Part shown: positions 8,874 through 24,449 of the stretch, piece after piece
Numbering within the stretch: the first letter of the stretch is position 1
How the letters are laid out: each line of letters begins with the position of its first letter
Virus record (IMG/VR): IMGVR_UViG_3300017655_000001
Location: 23,439 to 87,438 of that record
From: a virus
Taxonomy: Duplodnaviria > Caudoviricetes
Reading direction: 5' to 3' (one strand)
Length of the DNA: 64,000 bases
Position numbers and translations under genes: made by a program
The notes under the pieces: generated by a model
The model's database searches: none
Told to the model about the DNA's origin: nothing
What the model saw: only the letters and a program-made list of their open reading frames with translations

Positions 8874-8908
8874 AGCAAAAATCCCCTAAACCATACTTCA
8901 ATGAGTAC

Positions 8909-8937
8909 AGAATAGAGGATTTCAGAGATACTGTCAA
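8909..8937 (-). promoter_or_regulatory. sigma70-like promoter
   Basis: TTGACA-17-TATTCT. Confidence 0.7.
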
Positions 8938-8940
8938 GCT

Positions 8941-9372
8941 TTATTTTAGAGATTTTGGGGTAACTGCTTCGATGACAGATTCACTGTCTGCTTTCACATC
9001 CACATCAGGGATAATCACCTGTGGTTTGAAGATAACACGGTAATGATAAACGCTAACATCAGTGCCTTGAAGCTGTTCGCTAAAGTATGTCACATTATCA
9101 CTAAGACCTAGGGAATGTTTCTTGTACTCCTTTGGACCTGTTTTGCATGTAACATCAAGCTTTCGTGCTGTGCTAGCATCAAAAGAACAACGACCTTCAA
9201 GAGACAGCATGTAATCTCCAGTGATACCGTTATAGAACACAATACGACGATTCACTTCAAAGTTATCAGCAGCTTGTGAGAGATTGCGTGAAGCCACACG
9301 AGCATCATTATCACAACCAGCTAGGAAAGCTACAGACAGCGCTAGAATACAAGCTGTTAGGTTTTGTTTCAT
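8941..9372 (-). CDS. phage lipoprotein (143 aa)
   Basis: signal peptide with lipobox FLAG-C; RRIVFYNGITG motif I recall from a widespread phage lipoprotein family. Confidence 0.8.
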   Translation of the reverse strand: MKQNLTACILALSVAFLAGCDNDARVASRNLSQAADNFEVNRRIVFYNGITGDYMLSLEGRCSFDASTARKLDVTCKTGPKEYKKHSLGLSDNVTYFSEQLQGTDVSVYHYRVIFKPQVIIPDVDVKADSESVIEAVTPKSLK

Positions 9373-9554
9373 TATTTGCTCTCCTCAAATTCAGGCATCA
9401 TTTCAATTGCATAATTCAAAGCTTCCTGTTTTGCTGCCCTCCAACGAGCACCTTCCGTAAAAGGGTCCATGCCGAAAGGACATTGCATAGGGTCATCATA
9501 ATCACGAATAGCTTTTTCAAGAAGCTCTTTATAGTCTTTCATTCCGTATTTCAT
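9372..9554 (-). CDS. hypothetical protein (60 aa)
   Basis: AAGGAG RBS; TAATG overlap. Confidence 0.65.
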   Translation of the reverse strand: MKYGMKDYKELLEKAIRDYDDPMQCPFGMDPFTEGARWRAAKQEALNYAIEMMPEFEESK

Positions 9555-9572
9555 CTTATTTCTCCTTAATAA

Positions 9573-9797
9573 TTAAATTTCTTTCTTTGAAATCTCATCA
9601 ACACAGCAATGATACAGAGCTTCGACCTCTTGTTCAAGATCTTTTTGCATCTCGTAAGAAATACTTCCATCCAAACCAAAAGCTTCTATAAGCGTTAAAG
9701 AACGAATTTTAGCAACATATAGCCAATTGACACAAGACTTTGATAGCATGTGCTGGTATGTGTTTCGGATGTAGGTTATCTTGTCGTCAGTGGTCAT
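9573..9797 (-). CDS. hypothetical protein (74 aa)
   Basis: ATGA overlap. Confidence 0.65.
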   Translation of the reverse strand: MTTDDKITYIRNTYQHMLSKSCVNWLYVAKIRSLTLIEAFGLDGSISYEMQKDLEQEVEALYHCCVDEISKKEI

Positions 9798-10114
9798 TTC
9801 AAGCTCTCTTTAATAAGCCTCAACTCTTCTTCTGTGAGCTTATTTAAGGCTTTTTTGAGATTCTCCACCTTCTGCTTTTCTCGAATCTCTTCAACATCTT
9901 TGAACTGCATCGGAGTGGTAGACTCCATGACGTAGACGTAATCTTCATGAATAATGGCATTCTTTGCCATGATACGTCCTGCACCACCATACCAACCCTT
10001 GCCGATAGATTCAAGCTCAGCGTCAGCCTTATTACGACAAACGCTTACAAGCTTACCAAGGCGTCCATATTCGTCGAGTGTTTCATACACAACCCAAACG
10101 GATTCAATCTTCAT
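9794..10114 (-). CDS. hypothetical protein (106 aa)
   Basis: GAGGAG RBS. Confidence 0.75.
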   Translation of the reverse strand: MKIESVWVVYETLDEYGRLGKLVSVCRNKADAELESIGKGWYGGAGRIMAKNAIIHEDYVYVMESTTPMQFKDVEEIREKQKVENLKKALNKLTEEELRLIKESLK

Positions 10115-10323
10115 TTAATCAACTCCTCTAAAATCTTACGGCTATTCTCGCTCAATCCGCTGTCTGTGTCAAGGATGTGTTGCACTAGAAGCTTTTGACC
10201 GTCATGGATCTTAATTCCCTTTGATTGAGCTTCATAATAACCTTGAGCGGCTGAATATTCGTCAATCTGGTCACGCTCAGACCAAGTTAAGTCGTAATAC
10301 CACTTATCGAAATCGTCCATCAC
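10111..10323 (-). CDS. hypothetical protein (70 aa)
   Basis: AAGGAG RBS, GTGA overlap. Confidence 0.7.
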   Translation of the reverse strand: MMDDFDKWYYDLTWSERDQIDEYSAAQGYYEAQSKGIKIHDGQKLLVQHILDTDSGLSENSRKILEELIK

Positions 10324-11349: not shown

Positions 11350-11378
11350 AAAAAGAAAGGAGCCGAAAGGCTCCTTAT
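11350..11378 (-). terminator. intrinsic terminator after methyltransferase
   Basis: AAGGAGCC-CTTTC-GGCTCCTT then TCTTTTT. Confidence 0.7.
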
Positions 11379-12061
11379 AAAAACTCCTTAATCAATCTTG
11401 AAAATGCAACTGCTGCCACGATTGGAACTTGCCCATTTCCAGCGGCGCGATTGCGTTCCATCCGAAAGGCCATCCCATCAGATACTCCATGCTCCATGGG
11501 GTTACTTTTCCAAAAACCGTTACATAATTTTGGCAAGATTTGTGTTTCTGCATCGATGGTGCTGCAAAGTTTGCCATAGTGGTTGGTGTATGCAAGTAGC
11601 CAAAATCTTTTCCGTGAGTGGTCTGCACCCAAGTCTTTCGCTGATAACTGGACATATTTACATTCATATCCGACACTTTCAAGATCTTGCTTTGCTTTGA
11701 GGATCGGCTTTTCGGATACGTTTTCTGCAAAGACAAGTGTAGGGCAAACTTCTCGTACAATCCTGTACATTTCTCCCCATAAATCTTTTTCAGCAACATT
11801 TCTTCCTCTTGCTGCATTAGAAAACGCTTGACAGGGGAATCCGCCAGAAACCAAGTCCACAGTTCCTTTCCATGGTCTTCCATCAAAAGTGCATACATCG
11901 TCCCAAATCGGGAAACTTGGGATAATTCTATCGTTCTGCCTTTGCACAAGAACATTTTGACACCACTCATCTCGTTCAACAGCGCATACAATACTGTTTC
12001 CGAGGAGGTGGCTTGCAAGTAATCCTCCACCAGCGCCCGCGAATAGATGAAGCTCATTCAT
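11375..12061 (-). CDS. DNA (cytosine-5)-methyltransferase, catalytic (alpha) polypeptide (228 aa)
   Basis: motif I FAGAGG, IV GGFPCQ, VI ENV, VIII RKRFW, X GNGQVP; only ~45 aa between VIII and X, so no room for TRD/motif IX. Confidence 0.92.
   Translation of the reverse strand: MNELHLFAGAGGGLLASHLLGNSIVCAVERDEWCQNVLVQRQNDRIIPSFPIWDDVCTFDGRPWKGTVDLVSGGFPCQAFSNAARGRNVAEKDLWGEMYRIVREVCPTLVFAENVSEKPILKAKQDLESVGYECKYVQLSAKDLGADHSRKRFWLLAYTNHYGKLCSTIDAETQILPKLCNGFWKSNPMEHGVSDGMAFRMERNRAAGNGQVPIVAAVAFSRLIKEFL
11392..12057 (-). CDS. putative methyltransferase beta polypeptide encoded in an overlapping frame (221 aa)
   Basis: ATG 4 nt downstream of alpha ATG; open for 221 codons; HTPT and MEYLMGWPFGW (motif IX-like) near C-terminus. 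Confidence 0.75.
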   Translation of the reverse strand: MSFIYSRALVEDYLQATSSETVLYALLNEMSGVKMFLCKGRTIELSQVSRFGTMYALLMEDHGKELWTWFLADSPVKRFLMQQEEEMLLKKIYGEKCTGLYEKFALHLSLQKTYPKSRSSKQSKILKVSDMNVNMSSYQRKTWVQTTHGKDFGYLHTPTTMANFAAPSMQKHKSCQNYVTVFGKVTPWSMEYLMGWPFGWNAIAPLEMGKFQSWQQLHFQD

Positions 12062-15372: not shown

Positions 15373-15774
15373 TTATTTCTCCTTATTTTCCCATTTAGCG
15401 TCATACTGTTCGAGCAGATGACAACGAAGGTTTGCATCCATCCAATCAAAATCATCTTCAATGTTCAAGATTGTTTTTGTAGCACCAACATCTTCAATCT
15501 CATCCTTTTCTTCTTGAGACAGCATAGCATAGGATTCAAAATTTACAAATACAATTTCGTCAGCCCACCAAATTAAAGCTTGTGTAATTGGAATAAGAGC
15601 AAATTCTTTATCTGCTCCTACAGCCCTTGTATTGAATCCGTATTTGATATGCAAGCAATTGGCCAGGGTCGGAGATCTTAAAAGACCAGCAGAACAAACA
15701 CACAAAACTTTCTTTGCTTTGGTTTGAAACCTGTTCCCTACGTTAGCAAGTTGATTCTTCTTCCCTTTAATCAT
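15373..15774 (-). CDS. low-molecular-weight protein-tyrosine-phosphatase-like (CX5R) protein (133 aa)
   Basis: VLCVCSAGLLRSPT P-loop and downstream IEDD. Confidence 0.8.
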   Translation of the reverse strand: MIKGKKNQLANVGNRFQTKAKKVLCVCSAGLLRSPTLANCLHIKYGFNTRAVGADKEFALIPITQALIWWADEIVFVNFESYAMLSQEEKDEIEDVGATKTILNIEDDFDWMDANLRCHLLEQYDAKWENKEK

Positions 15775-17100
15775 TTACTTCTCCTCAACTTTACAAAACT
15801 TAATTGAACCGAGCTGTTTGTACCAAGCATTAATCATAAACTGCTTAACCTGATCTTTAGCCGACTTCTTGCACATCAGCCCATCGTGCCAAGGTAGTAG
15901 CACCTCGTTGATAGCCAATGTGTCACAGATTACCTTATCCATAATCTCGCTGTCAACAAATTGTAGATAAACACCACAATCAGAGAAAAACTTATCTGAA
16001 ATCAATGAGTTATGCTTTTGCACGGACTCCATAACCTGCTTGAAGTCAACCTCATATAGGCCATAATACTTAGATTTGTTTTCATCTGCCGTGTTCCACA
16101 GCGTTCTATCTTGGCCAAATTTCTGTGAGAGTGCGTTAGCAGCCTCCTTAATACTAACAGCATTCAGCCCAATCATAACAGCCATTTTGATGAGGTTGCG
16201 TGCTGGATCATATTTTTGCTTACCGTGGCGCATCTTAAACATCTCAACAGCGGATGGGTCAACATGGTATTCCCATAAGTCCACTCCATATGGATCAAAG
16301 CCTTCTGGTAGTTGTGCATTGATCTGCTCATAACAAACGTTAGCATGCATTGCAGAGAAATCAAGGGTTGCTAACTCTTCACCATCAATTTCTAAGAATG
16401 GCTGCAAGCTACTCTCCATGGTTTGGATACCGCCTACTGTATTGTACCAACGCCCACCAGTGGTCAGATTGTTAATGAACACGCGCTTATAGTTCTGGTC
16501 TGGTAGATCGATACCTTTCAGCGAAATTCGAGATTCAATCAAAGCAGTATTAAACATTTCAATTGTGTTTTTCATCTGACCAACTCCGCTTACGCCTTGG
16601 GTATTCATAAGTTTCTTAGTTCCTCGCTCTTTAATTTCTAAGTCAGCATCAACTTTAGACGACAAAACCTTATGTAAATCAATATCTTCAAACAGATGTA
16701 TTAACTTCTCTTTTACCTCTGTGATCGATGTTTCAAATTCTTCTGCTTGTCCATGTACATACTTCTTAACACCGCCTATATACAAATCAACGTAACCATC
16801 TTGTTCAAGCTTATCCAAAATTCGCATCATTCGGATATAAGAGATTTCTTGTGGGTTATGGTTATATGTGTTCTTATTCCTTGGAACCTTAATACCCTTA
16901 GCCCCGATCTTCAACATCCTAGCTGTGTTGGTGACTAAAGACCTTATTTCTTTTTCTTCCTTTTTACCATAGATTGATAGTAGATGCAATACTATTTTCT
17001 CTAAGCTTCTTGGTTTGTTGTAATAAATATTGAAATGAGTGGATGTTACCTCCTTCCACATCATCTCTTGTTCATCTACATCTTTAATGTTAATCTTCAA
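15775..17100 (-). CDS. divergent Pol A / T7-RNAP superfamily polymerase domain protein lacking exonuclease (441 aa)
   Basis: GGRWY, LDFSAMH (motif A Asp), RNLIKMAVMIGLNA (motif B R-x3-K), LQFVDS, LPWHDG (motif C HD); TTG start with GAGGA RBS. Confidence 0.7.
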   Translation of the reverse strand: MKINIKDVDEQEMMWKEVTSTHFNIYYNKPRSLEKIVLHLLSIYGKKEEKEIRSLVTNTARMLKIGAKGIKVPRNKNTYNHNPQEISYIRMMRILDKLEQDGYVDLYIGGVKKYVHGQAEEFETSITEVKEKLIHLFEDIDLHKVLSSKVDADLEIKERGTKKLMNTQGVSGVGQMKNTIEMFNTALIESRISLKGIDLPDQNYKRVFINNLTTGGRWYNTVGGIQTMESSLQPFLEIDGEELATLDFSAMHANVCYEQINAQLPEGFDPYGVDLWEYHVDPSAVEMFKMRHGKQKYDPARNLIKMAVMIGLNAVSIKEAANALSQKFGQDRTLWNTADENKSKYYGLYEVDFKQVMESVQKHNSLISDKFFSDCGVYLQFVDSEIMDKVICDTLAINEVLLPWHDGLMCKKSAKDQVKQFMINAWYKQLGSIKFCKVEEK

Positions 17101-17401
17101 TACTCTTACATCCTCTGATGATAGATAATAATAATGGTTAGTGATAGGTATGTAGTGCTATATAAGATATAATCCCGTAAAAACAGTTAAACCCTTGCAG
17201 GAGTAAGGCTGTAGCGATTCTGACCCCTGAAAAGGTTGCTTGTAAAGCAGAGATATGTCCATCTATTCTACTACAATACGCACAACAGTCTAATTCAATC
17301 TCTCTATCATTCTCACACAATTCAATAGAAACATTCTATTTGTATTCCTTGGTAAATGTGTTAAATTGGTGTCTATCGAAACAAATCAAAGGAAACACAT
17401 C

Positions 17402-17647
17402 ATGTCTGATTTACTGCGTATGGATTTTATCAACAGTCTTCCACAACCTCTGTGGGTGAGGCAATGGGGCAGAGAATCGTTTGACTGGCCTGTTTACGAC
17501 ATTTGTGTAGAAACAGGTCTTATCCGAATCGACGTATGCGGTAAACTGGGCAAGCTTCACATCTGCGATGTTGCGCAATTCAAAGACGATTACGGCACTG
17601 TTTATGATTCAGATGTGTTCTACAGCGATTACGAAGAAAATCCTTGA
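17402..17647 (+). CDS. hypothetical protein (MSDLLRMDFINSLPQP...)
   Basis: AAGGA RBS at ATG 17402; first gene of + strand block. Confidence 0.75.
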   Translation: MSDLLRMDFINSLPQPLWVRQWGRESFDWPVYDICVETGLIRIDVCGKLGKLHICDVAQFKDDYGTVYDSDVFYSDYEENP

Positions 17648-17672
17648 CAGACACAGCCGAATGGTGTTTAAT
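17644..17672 (+). promoter_or_regulatory. sigma70-like promoter
   Basis: TTGACA-17-TTTAAT. Confidence 0.6.
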
Positions 17673-17715
17673 TAACACATAGGCAGACAAACACAAGCTC
17701 TCGGAATCATCGGAG

Positions 17716-17952
17716 ATGAACATCATGGAATACACGATTTCTATTGACAACCTCATCATCACAGCAGACGTACACGCTTACGAAACATCTAGTGGTTATA
17801 AAGAGATTGAATATACAATCGAACGTGTATTGGAGCTTGACGAGGATGACATTCCTTATGCACTTGACAGCAAAGAAAGTGATGATATTCTGTGTGGGCT
17901 TGAGGATGTTGTGAAAACTAAATTGATTGAAGCTATTGAAAAGGGGGAATGA
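17716..17952 (+). CDS. highly acidic small protein (78 aa)
   Basis: about 21 D/E versus 6 K/R by hand count; GGAG RBS. Confidence 0.7.
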   Translation: MNIMEYTISIDNLIITADVHAYETSSGYKEIEYTIERVLELDEDDIPYALDSKESDDILCGLEDVVKTKLIEAIEKGE

Positions 17953-17955
17953 ATT

Positions 17956-18222
17956 GTGAAAGAGCTTTATGCAGAGATTGAGCGATTCCAAAAACTGAAA
18001 GAACGTACAGGTACAAACAAGAGCAGTAGCTATTCTGTGCTATTCCGATTTGATCCGTGGTCTGATAATGTAACAATCGAACTTGGTGGTTACGATGTGG
18101 GTAGCTGGCCACGACATGTTTATGTTGACTCGACTAAAGAGACTCTTCTCCAAGATTTGAAAGCTAAAGTAGATGAAGCTTATCTTGTTGTGGAAGAAGA
18201 TGAAAAGGAGAGTGAATTGTGA
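17956..18222 (+). CDS. hypothetical protein (88 aa)
   Basis: GTG start, GGGGG RBS. Confidence 0.7.
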   Translation: MKELYAEIERFQKLKERTGTNKSSSYSVLFRFDPWSDNVTIELGGYDVGSWPRHVYVDSTKETLLQDLKAKVDEAYLVVEEDEKESEL

Positions 18223-18446
18223 GCATGAACCTTGCACTCAAGAAAGGTAAGATTGTAGATCACGTCATCTTGTACCAAACTCCTACATGGGTCACTAATG
18301 AAGCATTAGAATCCAGTAACACGTTTGAATATTACAAGAATTGGGTTCTTGAAGGGCGTCAGGGTAGGTTTTATGACGCAACACTTGAACACTTTGCTGT
18401 TGTTCAAGAACTGCTGGACGATGGTTGGAAGTTTATAATGGTTTAA
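18219..18446 (+). CDS. hypothetical protein (75 aa)
   Basis: GTGA overlap, AAGGAG RBS. Confidence 0.65.
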   Translation: MSMNLALKKGKIVDHVILYQTPTWVTNEALESSNTFEYYKNWVLEGRQGRFYDATLEHFAVVQELLDDGWKFIMV

Positions 18447-18561
18447 AACCTCCGTTCCGCGCCCAAAAACGTACATAGAAACGTTTTCTTGAAGAATCTG
18501 TGTACGTAGTAGGGAAGAGAGGAAAACGTTTTAAATAGGCTGTTTTACTAAGGAGAATTTT

Positions 18562-18849
18562 ATGGATTTGCATGCAGAAATTATGAATATTCCGGCAAAC
18601 ATTGTACTGACTGGACCCGAAGGTGTTGGTAACGTACACTCAAACCCCTACATCGCCTATAAAGAGGGTCATAGGGATGCACGACATGATGCTGCTGAAT
18701 TGGCTTTGAAAGCACAAGCTAGGATTGAGGAGCTTGAGGACATTTTAGCAGCTTTTGTAAACTGGCAGACAGACGCAGAAGGTAAGCTGTCAATGCTAGA
18801 CGATGATGAGCTTTGGCTGAAAGCTGAAGATGTTCTGAATAAGAAATGA
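18562..18849 (+). CDS. hypothetical protein (95 aa)
   Basis: AAGGAG RBS; YKEGHRDARH motif. Confidence 0.75.
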   Translation: MDLHAEIMNIPANIVLTGPEGVGNVHSNPYIAYKEGHRDARHDAAELALKAQARIEELEDILAAFVNWQTDAEGKLSMLDDDELWLKAEDVLNKK

Positions 18850-18969
18850 TAACCGTCATCAGCTACATCGCATTGCGTTATTTCTTTGACTCTGATTGGA
18901 GTGGTATGCTATTGTTGTTGCCAATCTTCTTGGACTTGACTATTTTGAATAAATTTTGAGGGGTGTTTT

Positions 18970-19194
18970 ATGGCTAGAATTAAATTGCAGTACTTTAAGT
19001 CTTCAGGTAAGTGGGGTTACGAAGGCGAACTTGAGTGGGCAGACGATAAATCAATGTACGGTCTTATTGATCACGTTAAAGACCTAAATCGAAATCGTAA
19101 ACTGCCAGGTTTGGCTTCTGGTTCTTGGGACGGCCCTATTTACTTAAATACTGACGAACACCCTATGGGTTATCCTCTCCTGATTTTGGAGTAA
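18970..19194 (+). CDS. hypothetical protein (74 aa)
   Basis: GAGGGG RBS. Confidence 0.75.
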   Translation: MARIKLQYFKSSGKWGYEGELEWADDKSMYGLIDHVKDLNRNRKLPGLASGSWDGPIYLNTDEHPMGYPLLILE

Positions 19195-19198
19195 ATCA

Positions 19199-19465
19199 AT
19201 GACTGACAACAATTGGTTTGACATTAAAGTAAAAGCACAATACGATCATATTCAAGAGTTGGAAGCAACTGTTCGGGAATATGAAAAGTCTGAAGAATGC
19301 TGGAATGCTTTGCTTTCCTATGTCCTCGGTCAAGGGTACACTGAAGAGCCTCTTCAATTCCTGCGCTGCTGGAATGAAGGTGACTTTGATGCATTGCGTG
19401 AAGAATGGCCTGATGCACCTAAAGAGATTTATTATGCAGATCCTTTGAATGAGGAACAGAAATGA
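19199..19465 (+). CDS. hypothetical protein (88 aa)
   Basis: GGAG RBS. Confidence 0.75.
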   Translation: MTDNNWFDIKVKAQYDHIQELEATVREYEKSEECWNALLSYVLGQGYTEEPLQFLRCWNEGDFDALREEWPDAPKEIYYADPLNEEQK

Positions 19466-19792: not shown

Positions 19793-20041
19793 GTGACGTT
19801 TACAATTAACATAGAAAATGGAACAAGCCTATATACAGCAGAAGACCTTATTCGCTATAATGATGCAGGCTTGCTTTATTGTGGGGATGTTTGTCTAAGT
19901 AGTGTGATTGATAAGATTGTTGAGTATTATGAAGAGAAGCTTTCTGAGATGAAAGAGAGTGAGGGTGAGACTTATTCGGATTATCAAGAAGGCTATCAAG
20001 CGGCTGTAAGTGAAATTCGTGGATTTGTTGATAATATGTGA
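19793..20041 (+). CDS. hypothetical protein (82 aa)
   Basis: GAGGA RBS, GTG start. Confidence 0.65.
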   Translation: MTFTINIENGTSLYTAEDLIRYNDAGLLYCGDVCLSSVIDKIVEYYEEKLSEMKESEGETYSDYQEGYQAAVSEIRGFVDNM

Positions 20042-21780
20042 GGGGAGAAGTGTTGAGTAAGGATTATGTAATTGGAAAGAATCCTTGCCCTCGCTGTCGG
20101 CGCAGGGGGCAAGACAGGGCAGGCAATAACTTCCACTTCTATGGAGAAGGTCTTGGGGGTTATTGCCATGCTTGTGAATACACTGTTCCTAGCGATGATT
20201 GGCTAGCAGAACATGGTGAAATTAAAGAAGATGAAGAGGAGTTTGAAGTAGTGGGTAGTTATTTTGATAAAGAAGTGAATGAAAAGATTAAGAAGCAAAC
20301 CGGGGTGGACAGTAAAAATTATCGCGGAATTCGTACTGAAATTTCACGACCATTCGGGGTTCGTTATGCCTATTCTGAAGAAGACGGCAGTGTAGTTTCT
20401 ACTTATTATCCAACCACGCATGAATATGAGATTTCAGGGTATAAAGTTCGTCACCATCCTAAGCGGTTTGAAGGGATTGGGGAGACTGGTAAGGATTGTG
20501 AACTATTCGGGCAATTTCGTTTTAAAACGAATTCGGGAACTGTATTGATTTGTGGTGGAGAGCATGATACCCTGGCTGCTTTTCAGATGCTTTCTGATGC
20601 ACAAAAGAATAAACAGTATGATCCTGTAGCTGTTGTTAGTCCTACTATTGGTGAATCTGGAGCTTATAAACAAATTCAGAAACAATACAACTTCTTCCAG
20701 CAAGCTAAGAAGATTGTTGTAGCAATGGATTCCGATAAGGCTGGCGAAGAAGCAGCAGAAAAGATTGTTAAGGTTCTTCCTCGGGGCAAAGTTTTCATTA
20801 TGAAGATGCGCCTAAAAGATCCTAATCAATATGTAGTGGAAGGCCGGGAACAAGATTTTATTAATGATTTCTGGCAAGCAAAGCCATATAGCCCAGCAGG
20901 TGTTCACGCATCAAGTGGACTTCTGGCAGCAGCTATGGAATACGCGAACTTAAATCAGCTTACGCTTCCCCCTTTCATGGCAAAAGCACAAGCAATGTTT
21001 GGTGGCGGTTTGGTTAAAAACGAGCTAACTTGCTGTTTTGCAAAGACCTCTGTAGGTAAAAGCTTGTTTGTAGACTCTATGGTGGTTCATTGGGTTTTGA
21101 ATGAACCAACTGAAGTCGTAGGTGTCTTATCTCTTGAAGCTACCAAGGATAAATGGGCAACAAATATCCTTTCAAACTACCTTGGCGTGCGACTGATTAA
21201 CTTGAAGGGCGAAGAACGGAAGGAGTATCTGTCTCGTGAGGATGTGAAAGCCAAAGCTGAACCGTTCTTAATGAAAGAGGATGGTACTCCACGTTTTTGG
21301 GTTTGCGATGAACGTGGCGCGTCTGTTGATGTAGTCAAGGAAAAAATCCTTGAAATGATTATTCAACTGGGCGTGACTATCCTTGTTGCAGACGTATATT
21401 CAGACTTAATGGCAGGCCTCAGTCTGGAGGCGCAAGAGGAGTTGGTAGCTTGGTTTAAAAAACTTATCAAAGAATACCCACAAGTAAGTGTAATTCTTGT
21501 TTGTCACACTCGGAAAACTGACAACAACTCCCAGTTGACTGAAACTGATATTATTGGCACAAGTACAATCATGAAGTCTGCTGCACAAACATTCAGTCTT
21601 GAGCGAGACAAGCTTGCAGAAGATGAGATGACACGTAATTGTACCCGTGTTACAATTCACAAGAATCGTCACTTTTCAGATACTGGACCTGCTGGGGTGG
21701 TTTATTTTGATAAGGACACCAGTCGGCTGTATGATCTTGATGAATATATGCAACAACATCCAGAAATTTCGGAGTTTTAA
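20038..21780 (+). CDS. T7 gp4-like DNA primase-helicase (about 580 aa)
   Basis: Zn-binding CPRC...CHAC; TOPRIM (CGGEHD, MDSDKAG, KDPN); DnaB-type Walker A KTSVGKS; true start may be TTG at 20053. Confidence 0.92.
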   Translation: MRGEVLSKDYVIGKNPCPRCRRRGQDRAGNNFHFYGEGLGGYCHACEYTVPSDDWLAEHGEIKEDEEEFEVVGSYFDKEVNEKIKKQTGVDSKNYRGIRTEISRPFGVRYAYSEEDGSVVSTYYPTTHEYEISGYKVRHHPKRFEGIGETGKDCELFGQFRFKTNSGTVLICGGEHDTLAAFQMLSDAQKNKQYDPVAVVSPTIGESGAYKQIQKQYNFFQQAKKIVVAMDSDKAGEEAAEKIVKVLPRGKVFIMKMRLKDPNQYVVEGREQDFINDFWQAKPYSPAGVHASSGLLAAAMEYANLNQLTLPPFMAKAQAMFGGGLVKNELTCCFAKTSVGKSLFVDSMVVHWVLNEPTEVVGVLSLEATKDKWATNILSNYLGVRLINLKGEERKEYLSREDVKAKAEPFLMKEDGTPRFWVCDERGASVDVVKEKILEMIIQLGVTILVADVYSDLMAGLSLEAQEELVAWFKKLIKEYPQVSVILVCHTRKTDNNSQLTETDIIGTSTIMKSAAQTFSLERDKLAEDEMTRNCTRVTIHKNRHFSDTGPAGVVYFDKDTSRLYDLDEYMQQHPEISEF

Positions 21781-22326
21781 ATGGTCGATTGGCGTGAAAG
21801 AGTCGAGTATTCAGAGGATAGTCCTTCTGGATTAATTTGGAAAACGAGTGGCCGTAATAGCAAAGTAGGAACTTCCGTAGGATACATCAGGACATCGAAA
21901 AGGGGAGTCCAAAGATGGCAAACCATGATCGGCAGCAAATCATACTTGTGCCATAGACTTGTATGGGAACTTTTCCATGGCCCTATTGAAGATGGTCTTA
22001 CGATTGATCATTTTGATAGAAATCCTTTAAATAATAGGATTGAGAATCTAAGATGCGTTCCAAATGAAATCAATGTAAGGAATAAAGGGGCCTATAGAAA
22101 TTCAAAATCTGGAATAACAGGCATATGCTTTTGGACGAGCAGGAATGGGGATGAATACGTTACTGCTCAGTGGCAGGATTTAGAAGGGAATAGAAAAGGT
22201 AAAAGGTTTCAAATAAAGAAACATGGAAAAGAAGAGGCAATCCGATTAGCTATTGAATATCGGAATGAGCAAATTAGGTTGCTGAATTTAGAGGGTGCCG
22301 GATATACTGAAGCCCACGGAACATAA
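21781..22326 (+). CDS. HNH homing endonuclease with AP2-like C-terminal domain (181 aa)
   Basis: CHRLVWEL...IDHFDRNPLNNRIENLR; SGITGI...AIRLAIEYR. Confidence 0.85.
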   Translation: MVDWRERVEYSEDSPSGLIWKTSGRNSKVGTSVGYIRTSKRGVQRWQTMIGSKSYLCHRLVWELFHGPIEDGLTIDHFDRNPLNNRIENLRCVPNEINVRNKGAYRNSKSGITGICFWTSRNGDEYVTAQWQDLEGNRKGKRFQIKKHGKEEAIRLAIEYRNEQIRLLNLEGAGYTEAHGT

Positions 22327-22340
22327 TTTAGGAGTAGGAA

Positions 22341-24449
22341 ATGCTAGGTGAAAATGAGATTACGCTAGACATCGAGGCTGATGGCTTTATTTTCGAATCG
22401 ACAAAAGTTTGGACTGTCTGTGCAACTAATCAGCAGACTGGAGAAAAGATTAAAGTCAATCCTTTTAAAGATCCATCCGCCAAAGCAAAGCTAATCTCAT
22501 TTCTTTTTAAGAAAGAAAATCCCACGATTAGCTTTCACTTCGGTCTAGGCTATGATATGTTTGTATTGCAAAACCTTCTGGACATAAAGTTTACAGTTGG
22601 CAGAGACACAATTGAAGGAAAGCCAGTCCAGTTCATTGATACTCTTTATTTGTCAATGTTCCTTAATCCAGACCGTCAGGGACACAGCATCGAAGCTTTT
22701 GGTGAAATGCTTGGACTTCCAAAGATTGATTGGCGTGAAAAGGCTATCGAACTAGGACTGATCGAGAAGAATGCACCCGATGGTGCCGAGTTCATGCAGT
22801 GGCATCCAGAGATGGATGTTTATTGCGAGCGAGATGTTGATGTAAACGTTCTGGTATATGAGTACCTTAAAAAAGAATGGCGGGAAGTATATGGCAAGGA
22901 TTTTACAATTACTGATGCCTTTAAGTGTGGGCAAAAGTCTTTCTATCTTATGTCCTGTCAAGAATTGTCAGGCTTCAAATTTGATATTCAAGGCGGTAAA
23001 AAGCTGGCTGAACGTATTGAACAAATGATGGAAGAAATTCGTGCTGAGGTTGAACCACAACTTCCACCACGGCCTTTGAAGAAGTCAGAAGAAAAGTATT
23101 ATGCAATGCCAGCTAAGCCATTCAAGAAGAATGGAGACTACTCAAGTTCTTGGACTAATTTTGTAGAAAAACATCAAGGAAAAGAGGTAGACGGTGGTTG
23201 GGAATTCTACGGTAAAGTTTATACTGTAGAAGCTGGAAAAATGCTTGATGTAAAAATGCCCATGGAGATGGCAAACCAAGACCAGATGAAGGATTGGTTC
23301 TTGGAAAATGGATGGGAACCCACGCTTTGGAACTACAAACGCGGTCCTGATAACAAGCCATTGCGTGACCCACAAACACGGCAATTGATTCCAACCAGCC
23401 CAAAGATTCAGGAACAAGGTAAAATCTGTAAAAACCTTGAAAAGATGGAAGGTGAAATTGTAAAGAAAGTGGTTAAGTGGCTTAGTCTCCGTAACCGACA
23501 ATCTGTTCTTAATGGCTGGCTAGAGAACCCACGCCTTCAGATGGATGGCCGTATTGGTGCTGGACGTACAGGCATTGCAGCGACACACCGACAAAAGCAT
23601 AAAACCGTAGTTAACGTGCCTAAAGCATCAGAAAAGGTTCTATTAGGTAAAGAGTTTCGTTCACTTTGGATTTCTGAAGACGGCTTCCTTATTGCAGCAG
23701 GGGACGCAGCAGCACTAGAGGGTCGAGTACAAGGGCACTATTGCTACAAATACGATAACGGAGCTACAGCAGAAGAACTTCTAAAGGGCGATGTACACTC
23801 TAAGAATGCTCGGTTTGCTTTCTATGACCATGTACCTGAAGTCCGTAAATTTGACATTGCAGCACCTGAATTTAGTAAAGATGACCCTGTGTTCAAACCT
23901 TATCGGGATTGGAGTAAGAACGGATATTATGCCTGTATGTATGGTTGTGCGGGGCCTAAGCTTGCTGCTACATTGGGTATTCCAGTAAAATTAGGCACCC
24001 AGAAGCTTGAAGCATTTTGGGATGCAAACCCAGCCACAAAAGCTTTAAAAGAAAATCTTGAAAAATACTGGGCAACCGTTGGCCGTGAGAAGTATCTTCC
24101 TGCTATTGATGGGCGTATGCTTTGCACTCGAAAGAAATCAGCTTTGCTGAACACCATCTTCCAAAGCTGTGGCGGGATTACTATGGATTATGCTGGGTGC
24201 TTTATGGATTCTTGGCTCGGGGGGTTGAAGTGGAAAGACCGTAAACCATACTATCTATACAAAGGATACGTTGTTCGGCGGATCGCCTATCAACATGACG
24301 AATACGAATTTGAAGCTGAGGAACCTATTGCAGAAGAAATTGCACGAATGATTGAAAAGGCTATTGAAAAAGCAGGTGAATACCTTAAACTGAAGGTTCC
24401 CCTAGCCGGTGAGGGCAAGGTTGGCAAGTCTTGGAAAGAAGTTCACTAA
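22341..24449 (+). CDS. family A DNA polymerase with 3'-5' exonuclease (702 aa)
   Basis: ExoI DIEAD; motif A GDAAALE; motif B R..SKNGYYACMYG (Tyr at the E. coli 762-equivalent site, as in T7); motif C QHDE. Confidence 0.95.
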   Translation: MLGENEITLDIEADGFIFESTKVWTVCATNQQTGEKIKVNPFKDPSAKAKLISFLFKKENPTISFHFGLGYDMFVLQNLLDIKFTVGRDTIEGKPVQFIDTLYLSMFLNPDRQGHSIEAFGEMLGLPKIDWREKAIELGLIEKNAPDGAEFMQWHPEMDVYCERDVDVNVLVYEYLKKEWREVYGKDFTITDAFKCGQKSFYLMSCQELSGFKFDIQGGKKLAERIEQMMEEIRAEVEPQLPPRPLKKSEEKYYAMPAKPFKKNGDYSSSWTNFVEKHQGKEVDGGWEFYGKVYTVEAGKMLDVKMPMEMANQDQMKDWFLENGWEPTLWNYKRGPDNKPLRDPQTRQLIPTSPKIQEQGKICKNLEKMEGEIVKKVVKWLSLRNRQSVLNGWLENPRLQMDGRIGAGRTGIAATHRQKHKTVVNVPKASEKVLLGKEFRSLWISEDGFLIAAGDAAALEGRVQGHYCYKYDNGATAEELLKGDVHSKNARFAFYDHVPEVRKFDIAAPEFSKDDPVFKPYRDWSKNGYYACMYGCAGPKLAATLGIPVKLGTQKLEAFWDANPATKALKENLEKYWATVGREKYLPAIDGRMLCTRKKSALLNTIFQSCGGITMDYAGCFMDSWLGGLKWKDRKPYYLYKGYVVRRIAYQHDEYEFEAEEPIAEEIARMIEKAIEKAGEYLKLKVPLAGEGKVGKSWKEVH

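Follow-up and report, generated by a model that had tools for sequence, protein, structure and literature searches.

A second, thumbless polymerase of the divPolA2 family at a strand switch in a tailed phage genome

The polymerase gene and its surroundings

The window analysed here is a stretch of 64,000 nucleotides from a tailed phage (Caudoviricetes; IMG/VR record IMGVR_UViG_3300017655_000001, positions 23,439 to 87,438), and it forms part of a complete phage genome of 87,438 bp with 123-bp terminal repeats. The sequencing runs that contain the sequence are soil and freshwater metagenomes, with no RNA run among those listed. The subject of this report is a minus-strand open reading frame (ORF) of 441 codons without an internal stop, as seen in the ORF listing and its translation. 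The 441-amino-acid (aa) product belongs to divPolA2, a polymerase family already described in 2024, which comprises about 1900 clusters, includes a gene of the well-studied cholera phage ICP1, and has no member that has been assayed so far. It carries the smallest version of the Pol I/T7 RNA polymerase (RNAP) active site seen so far. New here are a second paralogue in the same genome, the signature residues of 188 relatives, a winged-helix-like domain, a fixed layout at the head of an operon, and a unique 74-nt block upstream of the gene. The features are listed in Table 1.

Table 1. Positions of the polymerase gene, its parts, and neighbouring genes in the window (the 64,000-nt stretch, numbered from its first letter)
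Feature	Position	Strand	Remarks
divPolA2-family polymerase gene	15775..17100	(-)	TTG start, stop codon 15775-15777; PHROG 4756, hhalign, Foldseek BFVD
N-terminal domain, winged-helix-like in the model	16660..17019	(-)	residues about 28-147, roughly 120 aa
Thumbless palm and fingers polymerase core	15778..16608	(-)	residues 165-441
Motif 2-like hairpin GGRWYNTVGGIQT (GGRWY...IQT; R217, Q226)	16420..16458	(-)	residues 215-227; model strands 215-222
Motif A, LDFSAMH	16345..16365	(-)	residues 246-252; catalytic D247, invariant; His252 at the steric-gate position
D-P-Y271, fingers Tyr	16288..16296	(-)	Y271 invariant in 133 representatives, like the catalytic Asp residues
Motif B (O-helix) RNLIKMAVMIGLNA	16159..16200	(-)	residues 301-314; R301, K305, M309, N313
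LQFVDSEI (Q380, D383)	15943..15966	(-)	residues 379-386; like the Pol I Q849 region, equivalence by motif only
Motif C, LPWHDG	15880..15897	(-)	residues 402-407; H405 and catalytic D406 at a beta turn, both invariant
Conserved upstream/leader block of 74 nt, CAACCTTTTNNGGGG ... TATCT	17165..17238	(-)	26 invariant columns, 8 orthologous loci
Sigma70-type promoter candidate TAGACT, 16 nt, TAGAAT	17265..17292	(-)	9/12 matches; about 165 nt upstream of the start codon
T7 DNA polymerase-like PolA gene	22341-24449		exonuclease included
Toprim-DnaB primase-helicase gene	20038-21780
Free-standing HNH_3 + AP2 homing endonuclease gene	21781-22326	(+)	between the primase-helicase and PolA genes
Gene for a 133-aa protein	15373-15774	(-)	abuts the polymerase stop codon; no family
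ORF for a 228-aa protein	11375-12061	(-)	partial C-5 cytosine DNA methylase match

The gene begins with a TTG codon, 11 nt upstream of which lies GAGGA. This start is credible because the ATG of the orthologues aligns with it and their N-terminal residues agree. Since the first plus-strand gene opens at an ATG at 17402, preceded by a good ribosome-binding site, the polymerase gene is the first gene to the left of a strand switch, as a preliminary description of this DNA had stated, and the two divergent genes are separated by an intergenic region of 300 bp. Among orthologues with 53-86% protein identity, all eight loci likewise have the gene in first place after the strand switch, with 300-370 nt upstream of it. 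Pseudomonas phage M1 shows this arrangement too, and Barba9A comes close to it; for most of the more distant homologues, a strand switch is no more than about 2 kb away. The preliminary description also spoke of an early operon; the position at the switch stands, and the timing is suggested by the conserved sigma70-type promoter candidate and by the early expression of the ICP1 homologue.

The upstream regions of the eight orthologous loci can be aligned only at the promoter and at the 74-nt block, with unalignable flanks. At the promoter position, the orthologues read TTGnnn, a spacer of 16-17 nt, and TGnTAnnAT. Each locus has a single copy of the block, in every case 110-140 nt upstream of the start codon, and the 87-kb genome as a whole contains no second copy. 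It belongs to no Rfam family (the only match fell far below the threshold), and its consensus fold is weak (-4.1 kcal/mol, with compensatory change in only three of nine pairs), so that its conservation suggests a site of protein binding or a start site more than a structured RNA.

The second divPolA2 paralogue lies outside the window, at genome positions 8892-10244 (-). It encodes 450 aa, is 29% identical to the first, keeps all the catalytic residues, and likewise stands at a strand switch, where it opens a leftward operon. The sequence TAGAATAG is found only upstream of both paralogues, where it would fit a shared -10 element, but the count of this 8-mer is about that expected by chance. 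One or two divPolA2 copies are also present in each of five related phages, whose sequences measure about 90-104 kb and are complete in four cases; some of these copies form a third lineage that is only about 22% identical.

The 441-aa protein is not the replicase, since a T7-type PolA and a Toprim-DnaB primase-helicase are encoded 3-7 kb away. Residues 10-701 of the PolA align with T7 DNA polymerase, including the exonuclease, and the protein matches Pfam DNA_pol_A; the complete family A replicase that had been noted earlier is thus confirmed. No conserved partner gene emerged downstream of the polymerase gene, as the downstream genes of 20 loci were unrelated, bar one marginal pair. For the 133-aa downstream protein, Atlas gives a weak lead to low-molecular-weight phosphatases (44% of one cluster). 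This protein has no match to the downstream protein of a 60%-identical orthologue and is not kept downstream of orthologues. At one orthologous locus, a UvrD-type helicase gene directly follows the polymerase gene (L035:2087-2726 (+)), the only downstream neighbour of a replication or repair type that was seen. Farther along the minus strand, the 228-aa ORF matches the C-5 cytosine DNA methylase profile in its first half only (positions 3-168 of 324) and may be truncated or split.

Family, fold, and active-site residues

Assignment to divPolA2 follows from sequence and structure searches taken together. A tblastn search matched 240 phage records, 115 of them from Rheinheimera phages, and the matches include Rheinheimera barbaviruses, Vibrio phages (among them ICP1), and Aeromonas, Pseudoalteromonas, Shewanella, and Pseudomonas phages. 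In hhalign, the family aligns with AUR84708, the representative modelled in the paper that defined divPolA2 (98.6%, E 1.4e-15, 318 columns; PMC11348598), and Foldseek against BFVD gives an E-value of 7e-24 to a protein of the barbavirus Barba31A and a template modelling (TM) score of 0.89 to an Aeromonas phage homologue. The PHROGs search returned family 4756, annotated as 'unknown function', with an E-value of 6e-82. At E<=1e-3, the family comprises 1916 representative clusters (clustered at 50% identity). The defining study, 'DNA polymerase swapping in Caudoviricetes bacteriophages' (Virol J 2024; PMC11348598), was made by computation only. Its authors first came across this second, divergent PolA in 110 barbaviruses and later found it in further phages, where a genome can carry as many as three paralogues. 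They described the palm as apparently active and both thumb and exonuclease as lacking, and they proposed a repair DNA polymerase or an RNA polymerase. The name is used only in that paper and its preprint, and neither contains an assay.

Sequence profiles do not connect the protein with known polymerases. Pfam gave no match at E<=10, neither to DNA_pol_A (PF00476) nor to RNA_pol, and there was no match in NCBIfam or PADLOC. Searches of PDB sequences, by phmmer with the single protein and by hmmsearch with family profiles, found no polymerase, and hhalign of family profiles against the phage's own PolA, used either alone or in a profile of 14 rows, remained below a probability of 1%. The kinship to known polymerases is thus visible only in the fold and the motifs. 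Among ten longer family members (493-562 aa), Pfam found no extra domain; a search aimed at longer fused forms found none, which is weak evidence, and a pattern scan of genome contigs yielded no relative with the chosen pattern.

An AlphaFold2 model built on 24 homologues has a mean predicted local distance difference test score (pLDDT) of 88.8 and a predicted TM score (pTM) of 0.79. In a Foldseek search of the PDB, the top matches to this model are only family A DNA polymerases (Aquifex Pol I with E 9e-7, then apicoplast Pol and KlenTaq, all with probability 1.0). The fold alone cannot separate DNA from RNA polymerases, because both classes of the superfamily score about equally. Structure alignments to polymerases begin at model residues 148-170 and comprise 277 model residues, compared with about 395 in the Pol I polymerase domain, which leaves a core of about 275 aa of palm and fingers. 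A thumb of roughly 100 residues is missing, as is an exonuclease domain. In the model, the stretch that connects the N-terminal domain to the motif 2 hairpin has a single helix (173-189). For the strands of the palm, pLDDT exceeds 90. D247 lies at the end of strand 241-248, and H405-D406 lies in the turn between strands 401-404 and 407-411; as modelled, motifs A and C are thus placed as in textbook polymerases. Both the right-hand palm and fingers fold and motifs A, B, and C in order are therefore present. The preliminary description had read a family A/T7 RNAP-type palm and fingers without exonuclease from the sequence and had suggested structure comparison with right-hand polymerases; predicted fold and Foldseek agree with it on all these points.

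The N-terminal domain appears, with moderate confidence, to be winged-helix-like in the model. In the structure search with the whole protein, residues 28-147 matched only winged-helix proteins. When residues 1-165 were modelled separately (pLDDT 87.8), the best 50 VIA matches were all winged-helix proteins, including Nse1/3, ribosomal eS10, ADAR1 Z-beta, kleisin, MarR/SarA/CodY/CAP/Fur, ORC/Cdc6, and TFE-alpha; the Foldseek matches of this model all had E>=0.03. Its secondary-structure elements follow one another as helix, strand, helix, helix, and beta-hairpin wing, which fits a winged helix. The domain is as conserved as the catalytic core, given that the wing residue G109 is invariant in 133 representatives.

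Conservation was assessed in these 133 representatives, whose mean identity is 20%, and signature residues in 188 family sequences aligned to the family hidden Markov model (HMM). Equivalences to Klenow and T7 RNAP residues rest on motif alignment rather than on superposition, and the Klenow and T7 RNAP residue numbers are textbook values. R217, D247, K305, H405, and D406 are invariant, and G216, Q226, H252, R301, N313, and D383 are at least 90% conserved. Y271 of the D-P-Y motif may be the counterpart of T7 RNAP Y571 or of Pol I H734; the T7 RNAP sequence was confirmed to read D569-I-Y571, and Pol I has D-I-H where T7 RNAP has D-I-Y. The motif strings that had been listed in the preliminary description were all found in the same order (Table 1), including a motif B that keeps the Arg, Lys, and Met of T7 RNAP and has Asn at the Tyr position. 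Its further point, that the spacing between GGR and motif A is Pol I-like, also agrees with our count: 30 residues separate R217 from D247, compared with 37 in Klenow (R668-D705) and 112 in T7 RNAP (R425-D537). Motif A is separated from motif C by 157 residues, and K305 from D406 by 101, whereas motifs B and C are 181 residues apart in T7 RNAP. Because the spacings from motif 2 to motif A and from motif A to motif C are Pol I-sized, there is no room for a T7-type specificity loop.

The positions that select the sugar of the incoming nucleotide are of particular interest. Position 252, which corresponds to the steric gate Glu710 of Klenow and to Gly542 of T7 RNAP, is His in 181 of the 188 sequences. 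Position 309 (Klenow Phe762, T7 RNAP Met635) is Leu in 116 and Met in 66, with Met in the present protein. At position 313 (Tyr766 in Klenow and Tyr639 in T7 RNAP), Asn prevails (171 sequences) over Tyr (nine) and Phe (five). Position 407 (Klenow Glu883, T7 RNAP Ser813) is Ser in 130, Gly in 41, Ala in nine, and Glu in five; the present protein reads H-D-Gly. The set of residues that marks DNA polymerases (steric-gate Glu, Phe or Tyr followed by Tyr in motif B, and HDE in motif C) is thus lacking in the 441-aa protein. Taken at face value, these residues suggest that most of the divPolA2 family has departed from a state specific for deoxynucleoside triphosphates (dNTPs). By motif alignment, the sugar-selecting positions no longer match the DNA-polymerase state and in part approach that of T7 RNAP, and neither full set appears to be present. 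The modelled representative AUR84708 (Vibrio phage 1.063.O, L028:25469-26761 (-)) is atypical in this respect: it keeps Glu, Tyr, and F-D-E, whereas about 95% of the 188 relatives have His, Asn, and H-D-Ser/Gly.

Possible role and competing explanations

The explanation that we favour, although we hold it to be somewhat short of probable, sees in the protein a site-directed initiator polymerase whose product would be a short primer, initiator, or transcript, probably of RNA, at an origin-like site. At the start of infection, the host RNA polymerase would transcribe the gene, at the head of its leftward operon, from the conserved sigma70-type promoter. The thumbless enzyme would make only short products, and the winged-helix domain would take the place of the thumb and tether the enzyme to a particular DNA site. 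Ribonucleotides would probably be accepted, as the sugar-selecting positions appear to have moved from the DNA-polymerase state partly towards that of T7 RNAP. A short RNA or a mixed primer or transcript could then be laid at the phage origin or a similar site and be extended by the T7-type replisome, and the two paralogues might serve two different sites. In phage T7, the initiator role at the primary origin is fulfilled by T7 RNA polymerase. That a family A polymerase can act as a primase is known from CCPol-MP of SCCmec (PMC7581432).

Observations on ICP1 bear on this proposal. In ORF100 of this phage (ICP1_2006_E, L002:5086-6753 (+)), the divPolA2 domain occupies the C-terminal half and is preceded by a different N-terminal region of about 290 aa. 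Starting at 4 min after infection, substantial numbers of reads were counted for the gene (PMC7567579, supplement). On the reference of that study it occupies 56.0-57.7 kb, a few kb from the coverage peak of theta replication, which has been placed 'near 60 kb', and no RNA polymerase is predicted among the ICP1 genes (PMC7145576). The nearness of ORF100 to the peak is a lead of low precision. Several facts weigh against an initiator role. The phage has a Toprim primase of its own, and neither iterons nor strong repeats were found in 16900-19200, where only short two-copy matches occur. Moreover, the divPolA2 gene is absent from many related phages and varies in copy number.

Two rival explanations are in our view equally unlikely. 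In the first, the protein would be a specialised DNA-dependent DNA polymerase that repairs DNA, fills gaps, or bypasses lesions, distributive and error-prone beside the proofreading T7-type replicase. Against this, His replaces the steric-gate Glu in nearly the whole family, as Asn does the O-helix Tyr and Ser or Gly the motif C Glu, and no repair genes are conserved next to the divPolA2 gene. The first position in a putatively early operon also fits such a role poorly, and so does the divergence of the paralogues and of their winged-helix domains. In the second, the protein would be a minimal single-subunit RNA polymerase for middle or late phage genes, similar to N4 RNAPII or T7 RNAP; the winged helix would read promoters, and the paralogues would split the gene classes. 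Against this, no 14-mer occurs three times or more in the 87-kb genome, and the commonest 10- to 12-mers are not promoter-like beyond the ribosome-binding site, so that a promoter set of the T7 kind is lacking. The interval between motifs B and C, 101 residues as against 181 in T7 RNAP, is too short to accommodate a specificity loop, processive transcription would lack the support of a thumb, and Pfam RNA_pol was not matched. The gene's absence from many related phages and its variable copy number also speak against this role.

Two further explanations are rated lower. The protein might be a template-independent or self-templating nucleotidyltransferase active in phage-host conflict, producing a decoy or signalling polynucleotide or tailing nucleic acids. 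The gene is accessory, diverges fast, varies in copy number, and heads operons of small early genes, where anti-defence genes often lie; moreover, with the template-stacking Tyr (N313 here) and the thumb lost, the grip on the template might be looser. Nonetheless, R217, Q226, and Q380, which read the minor groove of primer-template DNA, are conserved, PADLOC gave no match, and we know of no such transferase activity in the family A fold except the terminal transferase side activity of Pol theta, and we consider this explanation quite improbable. It is very improbable indeed that the protein is a catalytically dead polymerase fold kept for DNA binding or scaffolding. Pol-like RNA recognition motif (RRM) proteins without the catalytic Asp residues do exist near CCPol-type loci (PMC10061031); however, the invariance of D247, H405, D406, R217, and K305, together with at least 90% conservation of R301, across 133 representatives at 20% mean identity argues for selection on catalysis.

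The site-directed initiator can be stated in a more specific form, which we consider rather unlikely as a whole: divPolA2 proteins would be origin-specific initiators in which the winged helix docks a ribonucleotide-tuned, thumbless active site onto a unique site beside its own gene, here the 74-nt block, and there makes the first primer for the T7-type replisome, each paralogue having its own origin. If this were true, it would constitute a third route of origin priming, besides R-loops made by the host RNAP and primases of the DnaG or archaeo-eukaryotic primase (AEP) type. Initiation by divPolA2 could also explain how replication starts in phages that have a T7-type replisome but no T7 RNA polymerase. 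Whichever activity the protein has, the identity of its substrate would reveal to what extent this fold tolerates trimming and in what way the choice of sugar evolves.

Comparison with known systems

The canonical DNA polymerases of the superfamily (Klenow, Taq, and T7 DNA polymerase; PF00476) differ from the 441-aa protein in several respects: there is no sequence-profile similarity, the thumb and exonuclease are missing, and the steric-gate Glu, the residue at Phe/Tyr762, Tyr766, and Glu883 are all replaced. The differences from T7 RNAP and N4 RNAPII are of another kind. The phage protein is half their size or less, lacks a thumb, has no room for a specificity loop or for an N-terminal domain that binds promoters as in T7 RNAP, and has an N-terminal domain that is predicted to be winged-helix-like rather than T7-like. 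In T7 RNAP, Y639 discriminates the sugar, whereas the 441-aa protein has Asn at this position. Neither a Pfam RNA_pol match nor a repeated promoter motif in the genome, both of which would be expected for a T7-like single-subunit RNA polymerase, was found.

Exonuclease-less relatives on mobile elements offer closer parallels. CCPol-MP of SCCmec and TV-Pol resemble the present protein in that they are family A polymerases with an absent or reduced exonuclease, encoded on a mobile element, and coexisting with a normal replicase (PMC7581432, PMC10061031, PMC2579912). For CCPol-MP, de novo priming by a family A fold has been proven, and this enzyme uses dNTPs (PMC7581432). CCPol has a shortened thumb, a partial exonuclease domain, an adjacent partner with an oligonucleotide/oligosaccharide-binding (OB) fold, and a linked helicase, none of which is found in this phage protein or its locus. 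An operon of the CCPol-MP type, with an OB-fold partner and a helicase, was not recovered: the 133-aa downstream protein, whose fold was not modelled, carries no single-stranded DNA-binding (SSB) protein signal, and the downstream genes at the 20 loci are unrelated. Membership in the TV-Pol family (Iyer, Abhiman, and Aravind 2008), which the preliminary description had raised without claiming it, is not supported. The 441-aa protein shares with TV-Pol the Arg hairpin (R217), the two catalytic Asp residues (D247 and D406), and R301-x3-K305 of the fingers. However, the TV-Pol thumb consists of two antiparallel coiled-coil helices, whereas the model has a single helix (173-189) at this place, and no fusion or linkage to a D5-like helicase, resolvase, integrase, or transposase was found in the window or in the related loci examined.

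The closest match is divPolA2 itself. The present protein and the published family (PMC11348598) have in common the fold, the length, the motifs, a globular N-terminal domain, the lack of thumb and exonuclease, a regular DNA polymerase alongside, and a number of paralogues per genome that ranges from one to three. In this phage, a T7-type PolA rather than a PolB serves as the regular polymerase. The representative modelled in that paper has Glu, Tyr, and F-D-E, whereas the clade studied here and most of the family have His, Asn, and HD-Ser/Gly. The N-terminal domain was reported there to be without similarity, whereas here it appears weakly winged-helix-like. Finally, the gene neighbourhood was described as variable, whereas among the orthologues analysed here both the position at the head of the operon and the upstream block are kept.

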